Assembly: GCA_019455225.1 (NCBI GenBank)
Contig: JACFMU010000006.1
Location: forward strand, 7,561 to 71,560
Length of the DNA: 64,000 nt
Direction: 5' to 3'
Source: Candidatus Hydrogenedentota bacterium
GTDB lineage: Bacteria; Hydrogenedentota; Hydrogenedentia; Hydrogenedentales; CAITNO01
Shown: piece by piece, positions 14,008-51,646 of the stretch
Numbering within the stretch: the stretch's first letter is position 1
Layout: each line of letters begins with the position of its first letter
Translations under genes and position numbers: made by a program
The notes under the pieces: generated by a model
What the model was told of the DNA's origin: nothing
Databases searched by the model: none
Seen by the model: the letters and a program-made list of their open reading frames with translations, nothing else

Positions 14008-15042
<1,035 letters not shown>

Positions 15043-17754
15043 TCAGGCCTTTTTCTTCGCCGCCGCCTTTTTCGCGGGGGCCTTCCGCCGGACCGGCGCC
15101 TTCCGGGGCTTCTTTTCCGCCGCCGCCAACAGTTCCAACGCCGTTTCCAGGGTCACTTGTTCCGGGGGGCTGCTTTTGGGCAGTGTCGCGTTCACGGCGC
15201 CATTGGTCACATAGGGGCCGTAACGGCCCTCATAGACCTCGACGGGGGTGTCCGTGCCGGGCATCACGCCCAGCGCCTTGATCAGTTTCTTGGCGCGCAC
15301 GCCCTTGGGCTGCGCCAGCAGCGCCAGCGCGCCCTCCAAGTCAATGTTGAAGACCGCCTCCGGGTCCTTGGGCAGGCTGCGGAACTCGCCGTCGCAGCCG
15401 ACATAGGGGCCGTAGGGGCCGATGGTGGCCACCACGGGCTTGCCCTTTTCCGGATGCGCGCCAAGGTTGCGCGGCAGGGAAAGGTATTTCAGGGCCGTCT
15501 CCAGGGTCACCCTGTTCACGTCGGTGTCCTTGGGCAGGCTGGCACGCTTCAGTTTCGTCTTTCCCTCGGCCACCAGGCCCAGTTGCACATACGGCCCGTA
15601 ACTGCCGTTCAGGGCGTAGACATCCAGCCCCGTCTCGGGGTCCCGGCCCAGGCCCTCGCCGGACTTCGAGCGGTTCTCCAGCACCTCCAGCGCCTTTTCC
15701 ACGGTCAGCTCGTCGTAATAAAGGCCGGACGGTATGGAGGCGGTGTTCCCCTCGCCGCCCTCGCCCCGCTGGAGAAAGGGAACGCTCCGGCCCAGCCGCA
15801 CCACCAGGGGCTGGCCGTCCGGCGTCTCGCCCACGGGAATGACCGGATACTCGATGTCCGGCAACTGCGCCGCAATCTGCGGTTTCAGGCCCTGGCCGTA
15901 GTCGTGCCGGTCGCCGAAATAAAAGTCATGCAGGAAGGCCTGCCAGTCCTGGCCGCCCTCGGCGATGTTGTCGAGCACGTCCTCCATGCGGGCCGTGAAG
16001 CCCACGTCCACATACTCGCCGAAATGCCTGCGGAGCAGCAGCGTGACGGCGATGCCGAGATAGGTCGGGGCGAGGGCCTGGCCCGCGCGCTCGACATACT
16101 CGCGCGCCTGGATGGTGGAGATGGTCGGCGCGTAGGTCGAGGGCCTTCCGATGCCCTCCTCCTCCAGCCGCCGCACCAGGGAGGCCTCGGTGAACCGCGC
16201 GGGCGCCTGGGTCTCGTGCTTGACGGGCTCCACTTTTTCAATGGCGATGTCGCCGCCCGGCCCGGCGGTCATGCCCTCCCGCAGGGGGGGAAGCTCCGTT
16301 TCCTTCTGCAGCCCCTCCATCACCCGCAGGAATCCCGGAAACGTGACCACCGACCCGTTGGCGCGCAGGACCGCCGCGCGTCCGCCGTCCGCCGTCGCGT
16401 TGAAATCCACCACCGTCTTCAGCAGCTCGGCGTGGGCCATCTGCGAGGCGATGGTCCGGTTCCAGATGAGCCGGTACAGTTTCAGCTCCTCCGCCGTGAG
16501 GTACGGCGCCACCTGTTCGGGGGTTTTGTCCAAATGGGTGGGGCGGATGGCCTCGTGGGCCTCCTGGGCCATTTTCGACTTGGTCGTGTACTGCTGGCGG
16601 TTGTGGTACCGTTCCCCGAAGAGCCGTTTGATCATCGCCTCCGCCTCGCGCAGCGCCTTCTCGCTGAGGACCACCGAGTCCGTTCGCATGTAGGTGATGA
16701 GCCCCTCGCGCTCGCCCCCGCCCAGGTCCACGCCCTCATAGAGCCGCTGGGCCACCTGCATGGTCCGGCGCGGGGCGAAGCCGCAGGCCGACGAGGCCGC
16801 CTGCTGCAGCGTCGAGGTGATGAACGGCGGCTGCGGCCGCTGCCGCGCCTCTTTCTGGTCCACCGCGCCCACACGCCAGGGCGTGTTGGCCGCCAGCGCC
16901 CCGGCAACCGCGCGCGCGCCGGCGGCGTCCAGCCAGGTCACCCGGTCCCCGTTGGAGCCCTTCAGGCCGCCCGTGGCCGCGTCAAAATCCTTGCCCTGCG
17001 CCACGCGCTGCCCGTCCAGACTGACCAGCGTGGCGGTGAACGGCTTGCCACCGGCGGAGAGGGCCGCGTCCACGTCCCAGTACTCCGCCGTGTGGAAGGC
17101 GCGCCGCTCCTCCTCGCGCTCCACCACCAAACGCACCGCCACGCTCTGCACCCGCCCGGCGCTCAGCTTGGTCCGCACCTTTTTCCACAGCACCGGCGAG
17201 AGCTCGTAGCCGAAGAGCCGGTCCAGAATGCGGCGCGTCTCCTGCGCGCGGACCAGTTGGTCGTTCAGCCCGCGCGGCGAGGCCATGGCCTGGTCAATGG
17301 CCGTCTTCGTAATTTCATGGAAGGCAATCCGGAAAAAAGGCACCTTCGGTTTGAGCTCCTCAAGCAGGTGCCAGCTTATGGACTCCCCCTCGCGGTCCTC
17401 ATCCGTGGCCAGCACCACTTCATCCGCGTCCTTGCACAGTTTTTTCAATTCGGTCAGGTGTTTCCTGCTCTCTTTCTGCGCAACATAGACCGCCTTGAAC
17501 CCGTTGTCCACGTCCACCCCGAGGCGCGCCCAGGGCTTGTCCTTGTACGCGGGGGGAATGTCGCCCGCAGACTGGGGCAAATCGCGCACGTGGCCGAAAC
17601 TCGCCACGACTTTATAGTCACGTCCCAGAAATTTGCCGATGGTCTTGGCCTTGGCCGGGGACTCCACAATTACCAGTTTCAATGGATGGTTCCTTTGTCG
17701 TGTGGGACGAATCCGGGCCGCCCTTTTGGCAAAAAAGGGACCCGTCCTCTGCAA
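15043..17754 (-). CDS. topA: DNA topoisomerase I
   Basis: Toprim (VIVESPAKAKTIGKFLG), the catalytic Tyr region, multiple C-terminal GPYGPYV topoisomerase repeats, and a Lys-rich tail (KKPRKAPVRRKAPAKKAAAKKKA). The exact start is uncertain. Confidence 0.9.
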   Translation of the reverse strand: MQRTGPFFAKRAARIRPTRQRNHPLKLVIVESPAKAKTIGKFLGRDYKVVASFGHVRDLPQSAGDIPPAYKDKPWARLGVDVDNGFKAVYVAQKESRKHLTELKKLCKDADEVVLATDEDREGESISWHLLEELKPKVPFFRIAFHEITKTAIDQAMASPRGLNDQLVRAQETRRILDRLFGYELSPVLWKKVRTKLSAGRVQSVAVRLVVEREEERRAFHTAEYWDVDAALSAGGKPFTATLVSLDGQRVAQGKDFDAATGGLKGSNGDRVTWLDAAGARAVAGALAANTPWRVGAVDQKEARQRPQPPFITSTLQQAASSACGFAPRRTMQVAQRLYEGVDLGGGEREGLITYMRTDSVVLSEKALREAEAMIKRLFGERYHNRQQYTTKSKMAQEAHEAIRPTHLDKTPEQVAPYLTAEELKLYRLIWNRTIASQMAHAELLKTVVDFNATADGGRAAVLRANGSVVTFPGFLRVMEGLQKETELPPLREGMTAGPGGDIAIEKVEPVKHETQAPARFTEASLVRRLEEEGIGRPSTYAPTISTIQAREYVERAGQALAPTYLGIAVTLLLRRHFGEYVDVGFTARMEDVLDNIAEGGQDWQAFLHDFYFGDRHDYGQGLKPQIAAQLPDIEYPVIPVGETPDGQPLVVRLGRSVPFLQRGEGGEGNTASIPSGLYYDELTVEKALEVLENRSKSGEGLGRDPETGLDVYALNGSYGPYVQLGLVAEGKTKLKRASLPKDTDVNRVTLETALKYLSLPRNLGAHPEKGKPVVATIGPYGPYVGCDGEFRSLPKDPEAVFNIDLEGALALLAQPKGVRAKKLIKALGVMPGTDTPVEVYEGRYGPYVTNGAVNATLPKSSPPEQVTLETALELLAAAEKKPRKAPVRRKAPAKKAAAKKKA

Positions 17755-18023
17755 AAAGCAAACGCTGAACTGAAAACTTCATCACAATCCCACCCCCAAT
17801 TGCAAACCTTGGACGCAATCAGGAGCGAAACCGGCCGCCCAATCCCAAAGATTCGCCGCCGGATTCTCCGGCGTCACAGCCCATGCCTCTTGACCCATTG
17901 GACAGGCCGGAGTGTAAGAAAACAGACATATCCACTGATTGATTCACGCCCACGACCCCGGAACCGCAAAGTTGGTCTGGCGGTCTGCACCGCCGGTGTT
18001 TCCCCATGACAGCGGCCCGCACT

Positions 18024-19175
18024 TTATCTTCCCCAACCCTCCATGAGAACCCGTTCGGCGTTGCCGCCGAGGAATTTTTCCACCTGCGCTTCGGTGTACC
18101 GTCTCAGCATCGCCTCCCGGAGGGCGGTGTAGCCGCGGGGGGAGCGGAGGTCTTTGGGTACAGTGGTGAAACCGTCCAAGTCGGAGCCCATGGCCACGAC
18201 ATTCTCGCCGCCGTGCTGCATGAGGAAATCCATCGCGCCGATCATGGTTTCCACCCCGGCGTCGGGGCGTCCGGCCAGGTGGGGCTGGTAGACCATCATG
18301 ACGCCGACGACCCCGCCGGTCTCCGCAATCCCCCGGATGTCCTCCGGCAGGGGGTCGCCCCGGTTTTTTCCCATGTCGGGGACGCAGGTGTGGGACATGA
18401 GGACGGGCCGTTTCTTGGGGTGGCGGCGGGCCATGTCAATCACCTCGCGGCGGAATTCCGGCGTGCCGTGGGTGGGGTCCACCATGATGCCGACGTCAAG
18501 GAGTTTCTCCACCAGTTCGCGGCCCCAGAAGGACATGCCCGAGGCGTTCTGGCGCTTTTTGCTGAAACAGCCCACGGCCAGCCGGGTGCGCGGATCACTG
18601 GAAAAGACATCCGTGCAGCCCCCCGCCTCGTTGGGGTAAAGGTGCGGGACGATCATGTAGCAGACCCCGCGCGCGGCCAGTTCGTCCACCATGCCCAGGT
18701 CGCCGTTCAGATGGTGCGCCCCCTCGACGGCGTGGATCATGCAAAGTTTGCCCGCGCCCGTGATGCGTTGCATGTCCGCGCGGCTACGGGCCACCTCGAC
18801 CACGTCGCCACGGTGTTTCCGCGTCTCGGCAACCATCTCCTCCGCGAAGTCCAGGTACTCCATGAGCAGTTCCCGGGGGTCGGCAACGGCGAGGTGCCTG
18901 GCGCGGGGGAGCATTTTCGTGAGGAGTCCCAGGGGCCAGATGTCGGCGAACATGGGCCGCTCCACGGCGTAGGCCGCGCAGACAAAGGTCTTCACCCCGC
19001 CCGCCAGCAGGGCGTCCAAGTCCACGCGCATGGACAGGGGGAAGAACCCCGACGGCGGGTTATGGGCCCTCCAAAACCTGGTCCGGAACATGTACGCCTT
19101 CAGCGAGGGGTGCGTGTGCAGGTCCACCACGCGGAACCGCGGGTCGTTTCCGGACGGGTTGGCGGTGTCGGCCAT
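18024..19175 (-). CDS. membrane dipeptidase (peptidase family M19)
   Basis: VVDLHTHPS...VVGVMMVYQPHL...VAMGSDLDGF are renal-dipeptidase family motifs. An alternative start at 19196 would overlap the upstream rloB-like stop (ATGA). Confidence 0.8.
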   Translation of the reverse strand: MADTANPSGNDPRFRVVDLHTHPSLKAYMFRTRFWRAHNPPSGFFPLSMRVDLDALLAGGVKTFVCAAYAVERPMFADIWPLGLLTKMLPRARHLAVADPRELLMEYLDFAEEMVAETRKHRGDVVEVARSRADMQRITGAGKLCMIHAVEGAHHLNGDLGMVDELAARGVCYMIVPHLYPNEAGGCTDVFSSDPRTRLAVGCFSKKRQNASGMSFWGRELVEKLLDVGIMVDPTHGTPEFRREVIDMARRHPKKRPVLMSHTCVPDMGKNRGDPLPEDIRGIAETGGVVGVMMVYQPHLAGRPDAGVETMIGAMDFLMQHGGENVVAMGSDLDGFTTVPKDLRSPRGYTALREAMLRRYTEAQVEKFLGGNAERVLMEGWGR

Positions 19176-19192
19176 GGCTGTTCCCTCTGGTG

Positions 19193-19792
19193 TCATGCGC
19201 TCAAAATTTTTCCCACCAGCCTGTAAACGGTGGTGCTGCCGGGCTCGTGCGGCCAGTCTTCGCAGGGGGGCGTGTCGCGGCGTTTGGCCCGGCGAATGGC
19301 CTCCTCCACCATTTCCCGCGAGATTATGCCTGAAGGAATTCCCTTGTCATAGTTTGGAAGACACTTCCTTAAACGCAGAACACAGGCATTGCCATCGGCA
19401 ACGCCTGCGCCATCCTCGAAGTGAAGCAGCAGCCAATATTCAAAATTGGGGTTGCTCAATGCAAGCGAGTAATTGGCCCCGGTCGTTGACCAGTCATGCA
19501 GTTCCCTAATCTGTTCGTCCGTCCATTGGTCCTTGTCCACGACCAGCCAGGCCTCATCAGACCGCCCCAACGTGTTTGTGGCCAGGTGGTCCCTCATTCG
19601 CTTCAACGCCTGCAAAGGCGAACTGTTTTGGTTGCCTTTTATGCAGAACACTCTGGCCGTTGAGGACATGTCCCTGAACAGGCGAAAATATTGGGGTTCC
19701 GTTTTGAAGCCCTCGGCGGCGATGACAAACAGCCTCACATACCGCCGCCTGCCCATCGGCCTCCGAAAACTTCTGCTTTTTTGCGGCATCAA
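19193..19792 (-). CDS. RloB-like protein (AbiLii-like, Toprim-like)
   Basis: N-terminal [14 protein letters not shown] matches the RloB family signature (C-E-G-x-TE-x-x-YF). 199 aa. Lower GC than flanking DNA. ATGA overlap with the upstream ATPase gene. Confidence 0.8.
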
Positions 19793-21135
19793 CCACTCCC
19801 CTTGGCGCTGCGGACAGGTTTCAGGCCTGTGCCGGCCCCCACCAGCATAATATAAGGCACCCCGCCGAGACGACCCTGAAGATAACTTTTCCGGAGGTCC
19901 TTGTCATAACGGACATCCTTGTATTCGCTGAATGAAACCAGGCTCGACGCGCCCAGTACGTTCTTCTCAGCCACCCACATCTCATCCCGGCGAAACAACT
20001 GCTGGTCCATAAGCAGGACATCATGGGTCGTAAGAAGCAACTGGGCCCGGCTTTCCGGTCCACAACAGGACAGGTACGATTCAAGCAGGTGCCTGGTCAG
20101 CAGGGTGTGCAGGCTGCGGTCAATCTCGTCAATGACATAAACCTTTGTGGAATTTACGGAGGACATGTCCAAAAAGGCGGGCAGCAGATCTATGATTCGC
20201 TGCGAGCCGTCCGACTCCAGGCTTATGTCAAATGAAGCCTCCGTTCCATCCGCTTTCGGATGATAGGCGACCAGTTTTTTTGCAAGCAGCTCGCCGTTTT
20301 TTCGGGTAATAAAAACACGTTCAATCGGCGATTCATTGCGCAACCGGGCACCCCCCCCCTCCTTGACCTTTTCTTGGATAATATTCCTTTCGTGCTCGGA
20401 AAGGGGTATGTTTTTGTACGGAATGGCTTCACCGCCCAAACGCTCTATTCCAGTATCAAGCTGCGGCAACAGTTCATTCATCCTTACATACAACGGATGT
20501 TCCTCATCCAGAAACCAGTCAAATGTCTCAAATCTTGAGTCGGGACCAATAAGCCTCAGCGTGTTCTTAAACCACTCATATACCGGCCGGAAATGATTCA
20601 TCTTTTGGGAGACCGAGTTGGTCAAGAAAAGCTGGTTGTCCCTCGTACCCTTAAACACAATCGGCAACGATGTGTCGTTCTTGAGAGAACCATCGAAATC
20701 GGCCTCACCCCCCTCGCGCTCATACAAAACCCGCTCGCTGGCGCTGTTCACTTGCACGAGTTTCTCTTCGAGGACGCATTCACGGGTGACTGCAAAGCTG
20801 AACTCGTAAATGGTCTCATCCGCCAATATCTCAAAGGTGAAGCGTGTGGGCTTCCCAAGGCTTTTGGCGTCAAGCCGGAACGGCTCGACCAGGATGGGGC
20901 TGTCGGGCTGGGTGCCGTCAACGACCAGTTTCTTGGCAAAATTCAGCGCCTTGAAAAAGTTTGTCTTGCCCGAGGCGTTGCCGCCATACAAGGCCGCAAT
21001 GGGGAGGACGGAAGTCTTGTATTTCTCCAGCTTTGGCAGGCGGTCCCGGTGCTGGCGCTCCCGGCTGGCAATCATCGAGAAAGTAACGGAGTCCCGGAAG
21101 GACATCCAGTTTTCAAGGGTGACGCGGATAAGCAT
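19789..21135 (-). CDS. AAA family ATPase (AAA_21/ABC-like, RloA/AbiLi-like)
   Basis: P-loop [20 protein letters not shown] signature-like [10 protein letters not shown], Walker [13 protein letters not shown], and an H-loop TTHD. 448 aa. AT-richer than the surrounding sequence. Confidence 0.85.
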
Positions 21136-21330
21136 TGTGTGGCACCTTGCGTGATATAACTGTTATTAACCGCAACAAGTGTACACTCTTTTAGGTTATT
21201 TGTCAACGATTACGAGATTTTTTCTCACAAACACTGACTGTCACGCGATGCAAGGCTTTTCGCAGTGTTCCAAGATTCTTCACGCGGCCAGACACGCCCA
21301 CTCCGCTCCGCCCCCGTCATTCCCGCGCAC

Positions 21331-21536
21331 GGGGCCTTCCCAAAACCCCAGTTCCGCGCAACAGACAGGATTTTCCACAACACGCCCAACCCAAGGCCGT
21401 CATTCCCGCGCACGCGGGAATCCAGTGATACCAACAGGTTACGCCGACCCTGCCGCTCTGGATTCCCGTTTTCACGGGAATGACGGGGGGTGGTTTCGTG
21501 TCCTTTTCCCTGGTCCAGACCTTTCTGGAAGGCCCC
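21331..21536. repeat. MITE-like element copy 1 (about 206 bp) with terminal inverted repeats GGGGCCTTCC(C)AAAA
   Basis: Left end GGGGCCTTCCCAAAACCCC, right end CTTTCTGGAAGGCCCC. The interior contains the hairpins GTCATTCCCGCGCACGCGGGAATC and GGATTCCCGTTTTCACGGGAATGAC. About 85-90% identical to the inverted copy at 51396-51605. Flanked by the half palindromes CGTCATTCCCGCGCAC and TTTCACGGGAATGACGG. Confidence 0.75.
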
Positions 21537-21624
21537 TTTCACGGGAATGACGGAAAAAGAGTTTCCTGAGTCTTGCTGAAGTGTGAAACTATCGGAAAGT
21601 CCTGCCGCGGATTTTGGGGCGCGC

Positions 21625-24640: not shown

Positions 24641-24864
24641 GGGAAACTTCCTTGCTGGTGGAAAAACAGGGGTATTGTACAAAAAACACGGGGGTGGTGT
24701 CATGAAGCGGGGCTTCCGCGCCGGAAAGCGGCCGCCACACCCCCCAAAAATGAGGGTGGCCCCCCGTTGTGCCGGGGGGCCGGCATGTGCTCACGAGAGA
24801 CATGCGCAAGGGTTTCACCAGTACAGACCCTTCGCGCACCGAGCCGGTTTCACCGGAACCGCGG

Positions 24865-27780
24865 CTACTCGATAAACACGTCGTCCAGAGTCAGTTCTCG
24901 GATTTCGCCGAAGGCCTTGAGCGCCTCCATGGGGATGCGGGCGCGGTCGCCGACGATGGAGATCAGTTTCGGACGGTTGGCTATCGCCTCCTGCTGGAAC
25001 CCGGACACCATCTCCAGGCTGCCCCGGTCGAGAATGGCCTGATACCAGCCGGGACGCGGGTCGCTGAGGAGTTCCCGGCGTTCCCAGCCGCGCACGGTGC
25101 CGATGACGCCCCGGAACCCGATTTTCCCGGTCCGGTAACTGGTCACCAGGCCCTCTTTGGCCGCGTCGAAGCGGGCCTGCTCCAGGGGCATGTTGTCGAG
25201 CAGGTCCACAAAGGCGGCGAGCGCGTCGGTGGTCTTGTCGGCCTGGGTCTGGATGACTCCGAGCATGATGTCCTGGTCGCGGCGGGCGCGCCCGACGTTG
25301 TACCGGGCCCCGGCCATGTAGGCGAGCGCGCGGGCCTCGCGCAGTTCCTGGAAGACAATGCCCGCCATGCCGTCGGCAAAGTAGCTGTTGTAGAGCTGCA
25401 CCTCGGGGCTGCGTTCGGGGTCATAGAGCCCACCGCCAAACTCAATCTGGACATGGGCCTGGGCCGCCTCGCGCTGCAGGGTCCAGACCTGGGCGGTCTC
25501 CGGCGCGCGCACCCTGCGGTAAACAGGGGGGGGCGTGTCGTCCAGCAGCCCCTTCACGGGGTGGAGCCGCCGGACCGTGTCCATCACGCGCTCCAGGGAG
25601 AGGGTGCCCGTGTAGGACACGGACTGGCGGGAGGCCATGGCGGTGCGGATCACCCCCTGCAACTCCTCCGCCGTCAGGGCGCGCACCCGGTCGGCGGGGG
25701 GCATCCGCCGGAAGGGGGAGTCCTCTCCGTAACGGTGGAACTGGACAAGCGCCTCCGCCATGGTGGCCATGTCCTTGCGGGCGTCCTCCCGCTGGCGCAG
25801 GAGGTTGGCCTTGAGCTGCTCCAGCGCCTCCGGCTCGACGGCGGGGTTCCAGGCCAGGTCCATCAGCAGCGCCACGGAGGCCTCGAAATTGGCGTCCAGG
25901 CCGGTGAGGGAGAAGAAGGTCTCGTAGTCGTCCGCGCCCACGGAGAAGGTGGTGCCGAGCTTGTACCACTCCTGCTGAAGCGCCTCGGCCGCCAGGCTCT
26001 TGGTGCCCGACAACTGCATCAGCCGCGCCGCAATTCCGGAAAGGGGGTCGTTGTTTCCGCCCCGCTCCACGGCGATGGAAAAGGAGAACACGTCGTTCAT
26101 GGGGTTCTGAACGTGGTAATAGGTGACGCCGCGGCCGTCCTCACGGCGGGCATAGTCGCGGCCCTCGCGGATATAGCGCGGCTCCATGGGCTTCGCGGGC
26201 ATGGCCATGATTTCCGCCGCAAAAGGCGAAAGGCGCGTGCCGTCTATCTCGATCACCGCCAGGGGGGGCTTCTCCACCTGGGGCGACGGCCTGGGCGCGT
26301 CCTCGCGGAAGCCCGCCACATAGCCGCCGCTGAAATACTCGTTGGCGACCCGGATAACGTCCTCGCGGGTGACTTTCCCCATCCGCTCGATGAGGGCCGA
26401 GGCGCGCTCCCACGGCTCGAAGGCTATCCATGCGGAGCGCATGGCGTCCACCCGGCTCACGTCCGACTCCAGGCCCGTCTTCTCGTTTCGCTTGTAGTCG
26501 TTGATAATGGCGGGGATGAGCCAGTCGCCGAACTCCCCGCGCTTGATGAGGTCCAACTGGTCCAGCAGCAGCCGCTCGACCTCCTCCATGGTCTGGCCGG
26601 GCTTGGGGATGCCGTAGAGGTACTGCGCGCCGTGGTCGTTCATGGGCTGGGGAAACGCGCCCGCCTGGAGCACGGCCTGGCGCTGGTTCAGGTTGATGTT
26701 GATGAGTCCCGCGGAGGCGTTGTCCAGCAGCATGTCCACCATCATCAGCGCCTCGGCGTCGGGGTGGCCGCGCGGCGCGGTGCGGAAGGCCAGCAGCACG
26801 AACTCCTCCGCCTGGTAGGGCACCCGCACCTCCTCGCGCGCCTGCGGCGCGGGGTCGTCCCAAGTGGCGCGCTCCGGCAGTTCGCGCGGTTCCAGGGACG
26901 AGAAACACTCGTCTATGACCGCCATGGTCTCGCCGGCGTCAATGTCGCCCGAGATGAATATGGCCATGTTGTTCGGCACATACCAGGCCCTGTAGAACTC
27001 GTGCAGGTTGCGCAGGGACGGGTTTTTCAGGTCCTCCACCGTTCCCAGGGTGGGCTTCTGCCCGTAGGGGTGTTTTTTGAAGAGGGCGGCGTTCACGGCA
27101 AGCTGGATGACCCGGTTCTTGTTGTCCAGCGCCCGGTTCATCTCCTCGTAGACCGTCTCCAGCTCCGTCTGGAAAAGGCGGAAGACGGGCCGGGCGAAAC
27201 GGTCCGCCTCGATGGCGGCCCACTGCCGCAGCATGTTCGAGGGCAGGTCTATCTTGTAGACCACCTCCTCGTGCCAGGTGTGCGCGTTCAGGGCGCGGCC
27301 GCCCAGGGCGCGGTAAAGCCGGTCGAGCTCGTTGGGCGCGGCGAACTTCGCCGCCTCGACGGAGACCTCGTTTATCTGCCGGTACAGCGCCGCGCGGCGC
27401 GCGGGGTCCCGCTCGCGGAAATGCTCCTCATAGAGCGCCTCGATTTTGTCCAGCAGCGGCTTCTCCGCGGAGAAGTCCACCGTGCCCAGCCGCTCGGAGC
27501 CCTTGAAGAGCAGGTGCTCCATGTAATGCGCCAGCCCCGTCGAGTCGTCCGGGTCGTCCTTGCTCCCCGCGCGCACCGCTATCTCCGCGTAAAAGCGCGG
27601 CGTGTCGTGGTTTTCCGAAAGGTACACCTCCAGGCCGTTGTCCAGCCGGAACCGGCGCACGCCGAGGGGGTCGTCCGGCAGGGGGCCCGCCACCTCCTGC
27701 CAGCCTGCGGCCGCGGCAAGGCAAAAAGGCGCGGCCAGCGCCAACAACAGGGAGAACCGGACCAAGAAACGCATCCGCAT
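24865..27780 (-). CDS. secreted M16 family zinc metallopeptidase (two tandem insulinase-like halves)
   Basis: Signal peptide MRMRFLVRFSLLLALAAPFCLAAAAG, inverted zincin motif HYMEHLLFKGS, and 971 aa with duplicated M16/M16C domains. Confidence 0.85.
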   Translation of the reverse strand: MRMRFLVRFSLLLALAAPFCLAAAAGWQEVAGPLPDDPLGVRRFRLDNGLEVYLSENHDTPRFYAEIAVRAGSKDDPDDSTGLAHYMEHLLFKGSERLGTVDFSAEKPLLDKIEALYEEHFRERDPARRAALYRQINEVSVEAAKFAAPNELDRLYRALGGRALNAHTWHEEVVYKIDLPSNMLRQWAAIEADRFARPVFRLFQTELETVYEEMNRALDNKNRVIQLAVNAALFKKHPYGQKPTLGTVEDLKNPSLRNLHEFYRAWYVPNNMAIFISGDIDAGETMAVIDECFSSLEPRELPERATWDDPAPQAREEVRVPYQAEEFVLLAFRTAPRGHPDAEALMMVDMLLDNASAGLININLNQRQAVLQAGAFPQPMNDHGAQYLYGIPKPGQTMEEVERLLLDQLDLIKRGEFGDWLIPAIINDYKRNEKTGLESDVSRVDAMRSAWIAFEPWERASALIERMGKVTREDVIRVANEYFSGGYVAGFREDAPRPSPQVEKPPLAVIEIDGTRLSPFAAEIMAMPAKPMEPRYIREGRDYARREDGRGVTYYHVQNPMNDVFSFSIAVERGGNNDPLSGIAARLMQLSGTKSLAAEALQQEWYKLGTTFSVGADDYETFFSLTGLDANFEASVALLMDLAWNPAVEPEALEQLKANLLRQREDARKDMATMAEALVQFHRYGEDSPFRRMPPADRVRALTAEELQGVIRTAMASRQSVSYTGTLSLERVMDTVRRLHPVKGLLDDTPPPVYRRVRAPETAQVWTLQREAAQAHVQIEFGGGLYDPERSPEVQLYNSYFADGMAGIVFQELREARALAYMAGARYNVGRARRDQDIMLGVIQTQADKTTDALAAFVDLLDNMPLEQARFDAAKEGLVTSYRTGKIGFRGVIGTVRGWERRELLSDPRPGWYQAILDRGSLEMVSGFQQEAIANRPKLISIVGDRARIPMEALKAFGEIRELTLDDVFIE

Positions 27781-27871
27781 GGGTAGCCTCCTTTCGCTGT
27801 GTCAGACCGCGCCCATTGTACGCGCGGGGGCGCGCGCCGCGCATCTGGAAGAAGGCGTAACCGGCAAACAC

Positions 27872-51395: not shown

Positions 51396-51605
51396 GGGGG
51401 CCTTCCAAAAAGATCACAACCAGAGAAAAGACCAAGAAACCGCCACTCCGTCATTCCCGTGAAAACGGGAATCCAGAGATGCAGGAATGGCGTAACCTGT
51501 TGGTATAACTGGATTCCCGCGTGCGCGGGAATGACGGCTCCGGGTTGGGCTTGTGGTGGAAAATCCTGTTTGTTGCGGAGAACTGGGGTTTTTGGAAGGC
51601 CCCCC
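51396..51605. repeat. MITE-like element copy 2 (about 210 bp), inverted relative to copy 1
   Basis: Ends GGGGGCCTTCCAAAAAG and TTTTTGGAAGGCCCCC. The interior hairpins GTCATTCCCGTGAAAACGGGAATC and GGATTCCCGCGTGCGCGGGAATGAC and the GGCGTAACCTGTTGGTATA core are the reverse complement of the 21331-21536 copy. Confidence 0.75.
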
Positions 51606-51646
51606 TGGAACCCATGCCGGATATTGGAGTGAGGCGCGCCCATGCT

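Follow-up and report, generated by a model that had tools for sequence, protein, structure and literature searches.

The AbiL system (AbiLi/AbiLii) was reportedly described by Deng et al. in 1999 from the Lactococcus lactis plasmid pND861, and the RloA/RloB pair is said to have been found by Miller et al. in 2005 within type I restriction-modification loci of Campylobacter jejuni. A third system, PARIS, combines AriA, an ATP-binding cassette (ABC) ATPase, with AriB, a DUF4435 Toprim nuclease. Here we describe an AbiL-type gene pair in a stretch of 64,000 nucleotides (nt) from a Candidatus Hydrogenedentota bacterium, hereafter the window, in which all coordinates given below are positions. Both genes are co-oriented on the minus strand, with an AbiLi-like ABC ATPase of 448 amino acids (21135..19789) followed by an RloB/AbiLii-like protein of 198 amino acids (19789..19193), a putative Toprim-type nuclease effector. 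The pair is an intact, horizontally acquired two-gene module, and very probably a functional one. The family to which it belongs is very widespread and of a known kind, and among its members this one is ordinary. Its recognition is mainly a gain in correct annotation, adding one more AbiL-type locus; the sole feature beyond the ordinary is that, in a sister strain, a foreign allele has taken the place of its core.

Comparison with the described systems reveals several likenesses and differences. First, as in AbiL, an ABC ATPase gene of about 450 codons is followed by an adjacent, co-oriented gene for an RloB-type protein of about 200 residues, and both of the corresponding PADLOC profiles match, but the relationship is remote (~26% identity) and the pair falls in a separate, tightly conserved clade. 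Unlike the plasmid-borne AbiL it is also chromosomal, lies beside housekeeping genes, and is known here from its genes alone. Secondly, as in RloA/RloB, an ATPase is paired with a protein that belongs to the Pfam RloB family over its full length, but in contrast to the C. jejuni loci neither hsd genes nor other genes for restriction-modification lie in the vicinity, the flanks being occupied by trpG, trpE and hisF on one side and by an M19 dipeptidase gene and topA on the other. Thirdly, PARIS likewise consists of an ABC ATPase of the AAA_15/21 group and a separate effector of the Toprim superfamily, is similarly often carried by phages, and provides the best mechanistic model, although the effector here is RloB rather than a DUF4435 protein and has no match to the PADLOC AriB profile. 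The ATPase does match the PADLOC AriA profile (2.5e-33, profile positions 1–304 of 304, protein residues 46–377), but this match looks generic because it has the same length and protein range as the match to Pfam AAA_21. Lastly, the ATPase fold matches those of the Thermus OLD nuclease (6p74) and of Septu PtuA, and the logic of pairing an ATPase with a nuclease is common to OLD, Gabija GajA and PtuA; in OLD and GajA, however, the ATPase and Toprim domains are fused, whereas the pair in the window consists of two open reading frames (ORFs) with a stop codon between them, and the partner in Septu is an HNH nuclease rather than RloB.

Gene layout, family membership and conserved motifs

The two genes meet at a TTGATG coupling junction (19787..19792, minus strand; GGTTGATGCC), read directly from the sequence. 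Two starts are available for the RloB ORF, which ends at 19193: a TTG at 19792, giving 199 amino acids, and an ATG at 19789, giving 198, such that the TGA stop codon of the ATPase gene overlaps the TTG by 4 nt (TTGA) or the ATG by 1 nt (TGATG). A GGGGAG Shine-Dalgarno sequence lies 6 nt ahead of the ATG, which is also the choice of the gene callers at the equivalent position in two related contigs, L001 and L002, that are described below. In a preliminary description of the locus the junction had been given as an ATGA overlap, which is not the sequence found there, and the second protein as 199 residues long, a length that holds from the TTG but departs from the 198 residues that the gene callers adopt.

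The same description had proposed an ATPase and RloB-like pair forming an AbiLi/AbiLii-type module, and this proposal is supported here, with both ORFs present at the positions it had reported. The ATPase matches Pfam AAA_21 (PF13304) over the full profile and above the curated cut-off (5.4e-38), and the PADLOC AbiLi profile (PDLC02335) with an E-value of 1.3e-77 and 259 bits. The second protein matches Pfam RloB (PF13707) over positions 1–195 of 195 (4.9e-33, 115.4 bits against a cut-off of 31.5) and the PADLOC AbiLii profile (PDLC02337) with an E-value of 5.1e-25; these are its sole Pfam and sole PADLOC matches, even at E ≤ 10. With an AbiLi gene and an adjacent AbiLii gene on the same strand, overlapping by 1–4 nt, the locus has the composition by which PADLOC and DefenseFinder define AbiL. 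NCBIfam contains no model for either the ATPase or the RloB protein.

The residues expected of an ABC ATPase of the Rad50/SMC-like (AAA_15/AAA_21) type are all present, including the Walker A motif, Q-loop, signature, Walker B motif with D-loop, and H-loop, and the predicted fold agrees. In an alignment of 33 homologues the Walker A motif (G51-GNASGKT58), Q168, H371 and the Walker B residues D336-E337 are invariant, as is a motif resembling the ABC signature (E307-SDGSQR313). An AlphaFold2 model of the protein has a mean predicted local distance difference test (pLDDT) score of 75.5, and a Foldseek search with it returned Rad50 heads (7e-9) and PtuA proteins from both Septu and retron systems (1e-8), with cohesin SMC heads and the Thermus OLD nuclease 6p74 also falling in the overall range of 7e-9 to 2e-6. 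An alignment of 37 RloB homologues shows no variation at E26, D78-E79, D85, S112-N113-P114, F116-E117 or W119, and at least 90% conservation at K86 and D87. The predicted model of RloB (pLDDT 70.5) contains four beta-alpha units, in which strand 1 (residues 19–25) is followed by E26, and strand 3 (79–85) by D85-K86-D87. As judged from these residues and the model, RloB appears to have the arrangement that characterizes Toprim domains, with a Glu after strand 1 and a DxD after strand 3, and we predict that it is a small metal-dependent nuclease of the Toprim superfamily. A 2025 study places RloB in this superfamily, with a catalytic pattern equivalent to the E26/DxD layout seen here (PMC12065111), and an earlier statement based on HHpred relates RloB to the Toprim domains of OLD type (PMC10440598).

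Neither ORF is truncated, and the catalytic motifs are all intact. Furthermore, the ratio of nonsynonymous to synonymous substitution rates (dN/dS) of the ATPase gene, measured against a more distant relative (L009, see below), is 0.06, which shows that the gene is under purifying selection. These observations bear directly on the possibility that a formerly mobile module survives here as an inactive remnant, kept by chance alone. Some relatives have lost RloB, a run of nine G residues in the ATPase gene could easily cause a frameshift, and there are no mobility genes or flanking direct repeats around the pair, all of which such a remnant would accommodate; but intact catalytic motifs in two complete ORFs and a dN/dS of 0.06 are hard to reconcile with it, the promoter hexamers and Shine-Dalgarno sequence have been kept while the promoter spacer varies, and the replacement allele in the sister strain is intact too. 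We therefore consider a remnant very unlikely.

Foreign origin, distribution and allele exchange

The pair is foreign to the host genome. The surrounding trpE, trpG, M19 dipeptidase and topA genes, whose identities were confirmed by Pfam, have GC contents of 0.64–0.67 and GC contents at third codon positions (GC3) of 0.87–0.93, against a GC content of 0.53 and a GC3 of 0.66 for the ATPase gene and 0.56 and 0.67 for the RloB gene; the block is thus AT-richer than its neighbors, as had been reported for it. Four more distant homologues of the dipeptidase (58–72% identity) have unrelated neighbors with no such pair alongside, but synteny is not conserved in those four organisms either, and no clean empty site was seen among them. 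Dipeptidase scans of genome contigs (no match) and of metagenome contigs (one relative at 58% identity) gave no close relative without the pair, and exact-protein look-ups with the same aim returned already known contigs alone. The closest named dipeptidase homologues, at about 53% identity, come from metagenome-assembled genomes of the Hydrogenedentota.

In the three closest relatives found, on the other hand, the pair occupies the same site in every case. The horizontal acquisition that had been suggested from the sequence is supported in so far as composition and distribution are concerned, but, with the pair at one place in three close relatives, it is not a recent, strain-specific insertion. 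The alternative of a pair common to all relatives at native GC does not apply, since the GC is not native and the pair is absent beside the four distant dipeptidase genes. The same findings weigh on the notion that the two genes belong to the host and serve DNA maintenance, a Toprim nuclease acting beside a Rad50/RecF-like ATPase, as a housekeeping pair in an operon with the dipeptidase. The ATPase model does resemble Rad50/SMC heads, the pair is co-oriented and tightly packed with the dipeptidase gene without a terminator-like site between them, and the site is shared by the three close relatives. Against this, the GC3 of 0.66 compares with 0.87–0.93 in host genes, the distant dipeptidase homologues lack the pair and the dipeptidase is beside the pair in none of 80 other loci, and the pair is patchily distributed across phyla at a flat 63–71% identity and occurs on viral contigs; we regard a housekeeping role as extremely improbable.

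The wider family is large: over 2,400 homologues of the ATPase were found, and some 1,900 of RloB; among the best 120 listed, and leaving near-identical contigs aside, identities are 64–76% for the ATPase and 57–76% for RloB. When 1.84 billion proteins were searched with a profile of the RloB family, 7,596 cluster representatives matched (E ≤ 0.001). In a scan of one representative genome per species, 482 genomes encode a close relative of the ATPase, and the 80 loci kept from these show a flat 63–71% ATPase identity over more than 12 phyla. They include Pseudomonadota, Thermodesulfobacteriota, Planctomycetota, Bacteroidota, Chlorobiota, Chlamydiota, Verrucomicrobiota, Latescibacterota, Hydrogenedentota and Acidobacteriota, as well as Actinomycetes and others. 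The clade is very uniform, with proteins of 448 and 198 residues sharing 63–71% identity both across these phyla and on prophages. An RloB homologue lies directly downstream of the ATPase gene in 67 of the 80 loci, and in one further, masked case; three of the remainder are cut by contig ends and nine have no intact RloB.

Carriage by phages is equally evident. In IMG/VR the ATPase gene is present on 20 viral contigs, with RloB adjacent in all 19 of the close ones, and one widespread allele, 71% identical to that of the window, resides in a prophage between primase and integrase/terminase genes. We also note that ATPase identity is flat (about 63–71%) whatever the phylum, and that two alleles within one species are 66% identical, as far apart as alleles of different phyla; the family looks star-like, perhaps because strong constraint has saturated it or because transfer has shuffled it heavily. 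Several Latescibacterota loci have an ATPase homologue without RloB. In one of them (L064, 7436-9253) this homologue is followed by a second AAA_21/AAA_15 ATPase of 605 amino acids, and in another (L066, 7438-8511) by a HipA_C kinase-like protein, which suggests partner swapping or a defence-island context.

Of the close relatives, L001 is identical to the window. L002, from a sister strain, has the same gene order as the window (trpG, spacer, ATPase, RloB, M19 dipeptidase, topA and an epimerase gene), with flanks that are 97–100% identical. Within the pair, however, there is a sharply bounded core of about 1.16 kb (20716..19556, minus strand), encoding ATPase residues ~141–448 and RloB residues 1 to ~78, where the identity between window and L002 falls to 52–68%, against 95–100% on both sides. 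Identity is thus 95.3% in the 5′ part of the ATPase gene, 66% in its 3′ part, 57.5% in the 5′ part of the RloB gene and 97% in its 3′ part, and continues at 99% in the dipeptidase gene and 98.2% in topA. The ATPase part of the L002 core has a GC content of 0.40 and a GC3 of 0.34, indicating a recent arrival from a low-GC donor. The right breakpoint of the core is inside the DNA for an invariant motif of the pair, which suggests that homologous recombination used the family's best-conserved stretches as anchors. For neither core could a donor be named, the two being 66% identical to each other and 66–71% identical to every sampled homologue. A 1-kb contig, L111, carries a third allele, with 75% identity to the window, 81% to L002, and a GC content of 0.47.

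L009 represents a more distant lineage, yet its pair is 98–100% identical to that of the window, compared with 86–98% for its dipeptidase gene. Synonymous divergence between the window and L009 is 0.063 for the ATPase gene and 0.030 for the RloB gene but 0.206 for the dipeptidase gene, from which it follows that the shared allele is younger than the split between the two lineages. Together, these patterns point to a chromosomal site that is itself fixed but whose alleles are turned over by recombination. The three natural alleles found there delimit a block of 1.16 kb that is exchanged in one piece, and specificity, as well as the interaction between ATPase and nuclease, may well reside in this block.

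A bolder interpretation, which we offer tentatively and regard as somewhat doubtful, is that the site is a fixed chromosomal 'defence slot' whose core is repeatedly overwritten by foreign alleles, with additional phase variation at the run of nine G residues and transcription of the dipeptidase gene driven by the pair. The core, comprising the insertion domain and C-terminal lobe of the ATPase together with the N-terminal half of RloB, would then determine specificity, and would be exchanged by homologous recombination with alleles that are probably phage-borne, anchored on the nearly invariant motifs. This interpretation derives from the finding of near-identical strains with cores at 52–68% identity, and of a distant lineage that shares the window allele at about 99%.

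Two smaller observations concern the same loci. The nine-G homopolymer (GGGGGGGGG; 20351..20359, minus strand) lies within the ATPase ORF at codons for E-G-G-G and is one of two homopolymers of at least 9 nt in the 64 kb; it could allow on/off switching by frameshift. No variation in its length was seen, as it is the same in L001 and L009, and the L002 allele lacks the tract. In L009 similarity to the window (L009 3318-7133 against window 18030 and below) ends just past the dipeptidase stop codon, where genes for proteins of 177 and 54 amino acids and a GDSL lipase are found instead of topA; either the region has been rearranged or the block of three genes has moved.

Proposed mode of action

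The most likely function of the pair, by analogy with PARIS and in our estimation at about even confidence, is that of a toxin/sensor abortive-infection module. Through coupled translation the ATPase would be made before RloB, whose synthesis would keep pace with it, and an oligomer of the ATPase would sequester RloB and keep its nuclease activity in check. On a cue from a phage, and with ATP binding or hydrolysis, the state of the ATPase might then change such that RloB is released or activated. The nucleic acid that RloB would then cut is probably RNA or tRNA, though possibly DNA, and the cleavage would halt the production of phages while sacrificing the cell. We infer that the two proteins form a complex and that they protect against phage, and the trigger and substrate in this scheme are likewise inferred. 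AbiL has been grouped with the defence systems in which an ABC ATPase is paired with a TOPRIM protein (PMC11464382), and AAA proteins are reported to neutralize Toprim toxins, whose effect resembles that of RNases targeting translation (PMC10440598). The turnover of alleles described above is typical of defence loci and counts in favor of a defence module.

There are also several points that weigh against this reading. The pair is not in a defence island, its neighbors being trpE/trpG, hisF, an M16 peptidase gene, the M19 dipeptidase gene and topA. The ATPase gene lacks an intact RloB in nine of the 77 loci that could be assessed, so it can persist alone. With about 26% identity, the ATPase is only remotely similar to an 'abortive phage resistance protein' of a Lactococcus prophage, and equally so (about 26%) to the 'abiLI' genes of small enterobacterial plasmids. 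A Foldseek search of the PDB with the RloB model (pLDDT 70.5) gave no significant match to Toprim or OLD structures, a search of BFVD returned a viral RloB-like protein as the sole result, and profile hidden Markov model searches of PDB sequences revealed no solved relative of RloB in the copy searched. No experiment on this subfamily was found, the lactococcal prototype alone having been tested for phage resistance, and according to a 2026 review the mode of action of both AbiL, that of lactococci included, and RloAB is still unknown (PMC13064643). With its uniformity, and with no RloB structure in the PDB copy searched, the clade is a good target for learning how systems of an ABC ATPase and RloB sense and kill.

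A rival explanation is that the pair is a selfish toxin-antitoxin (addiction) module, with RloB as toxin and the ATPase as antitoxin, which persists and spreads because its loss kills the cell, with no real benefit against phages. Pairs of AAA ATPases and Toprim toxins have acted as toxin-antitoxin systems in toxicity-neutralization assays (PMC10440598), the gene for the putative antitoxin comes first and is coupled to that of the toxin, and the spread over phyla and mobile elements would also fit a selfish element. The two roles are not exclusive, however, as PARIS shows both (PMC13064643), and while the replacement of alleles between near-identical strains is predicted by diversifying pressure from phages, it is not required by addiction. 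The positions of the genes among the accessory genes of prophages are, moreover, typical of superinfection-exclusion cargo. On balance a purely selfish module seems unlikely.

Expression signals, the downstream dipeptidase and upstream repeats

A promoter-like site, TTGACA-17 nt-TACACT, is located 43 nt upstream of the ATPase ATG (21206..21178, minus strand), and matches the consensus at 10 of 12 positions in a consensus scan. A Shine-Dalgarno-like AAGGTG, found by direct reading, is present 7 nt ahead of the same ATG (21143..21148, minus strand). Both hexamers and the AAGGTG are identical in the window, L002 and L009, with five substitutions in the promoter spacer, and this conservation of the signals despite changes between them supports a real promoter, albeit without proving it. 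An imperfect 20-nt palindrome (TAACC...GTGTACAC...GGTTA; 21167-21198) covering the −10 hexamer was considered as an operator, but its arms are not conserved in L002 and it is probably not one.

Downstream of the pair is the M19 dipeptidase gene (18024..19175, minus strand; Pfam Peptidase_M19, 5e-45; GC3 0.87), 17 nt beyond the RloB gene. Its start codon is more probably the ATG at 19175 than that at 19196, judging from a AGAGGGAA Shine-Dalgarno sequence ahead of the former, the 383 amino acids assigned by gene callers, and the length of most homologues (382–383 amino acids), and this choice leaves the 17-nt spacer after the RloB stop codon. The ATGA motif lies here, where the RloB stop meets the start of the longest dipeptidase ORF at 19196; the overlap of these two genes raised in the preliminary description thus has a basis in the sequence, but it belongs to the less likely gene model. 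There is no terminator-like site on the minus strand between RloB and the dipeptidase gene, and it is plausible that this host gene is co-transcribed with the pair, probably by read-through. A promoter-like site within the RloB gene (19350..19323) is an alternative source of dipeptidase transcription. The dipeptidase was also considered as a third component of the module, and was rejected because it is beside the pair in 0 of the 80 other loci and has a native GC3.

The spacer between trpG and the ATPase gene (21136-21620) contains two nested palindromic units (inverted repeats I1 and I2) with hairpin-forming termini, CCGTCATTCCCG...CGGGAATGACGG. Together they form a repeat element (21300..21560, with no strand assigned) that marks the boundary of the module without being part of it. 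Four CGTCATTCCCG units occur at 21315-21552, and this motif has eight matches in the window against 2.3 expected. A second copy of the element is present at 51447-51610, and L002 has a single 88-nt repeat unit at this site (L002 624-711). The repeats are the genome's own repeat family, varying between strains. The palindromic repeats previously noted at the end of the block are therefore real, but they are a genome-wide element rather than a mark of this insertion, and because they flank the pair on one side only they provide no evidence for its route of arrival. Insertion scars and an RNA element were set aside as explanations, given the recurrence at 51.4 kb and the lack of a matching repeat at the opposite end of the pair; no match came from Rfam and tRNA scans of the window. 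Finally, three plus-strand ORFs of 406–1005 amino acids lie antisense to host genes (15016-18009, 18006-19226 and 24769-27786, opposite topA, the dipeptidase gene and the M16 peptidase gene, respectively), and these are shadow ORFs of the kind expected at a GC3 near 0.9 rather than genes.

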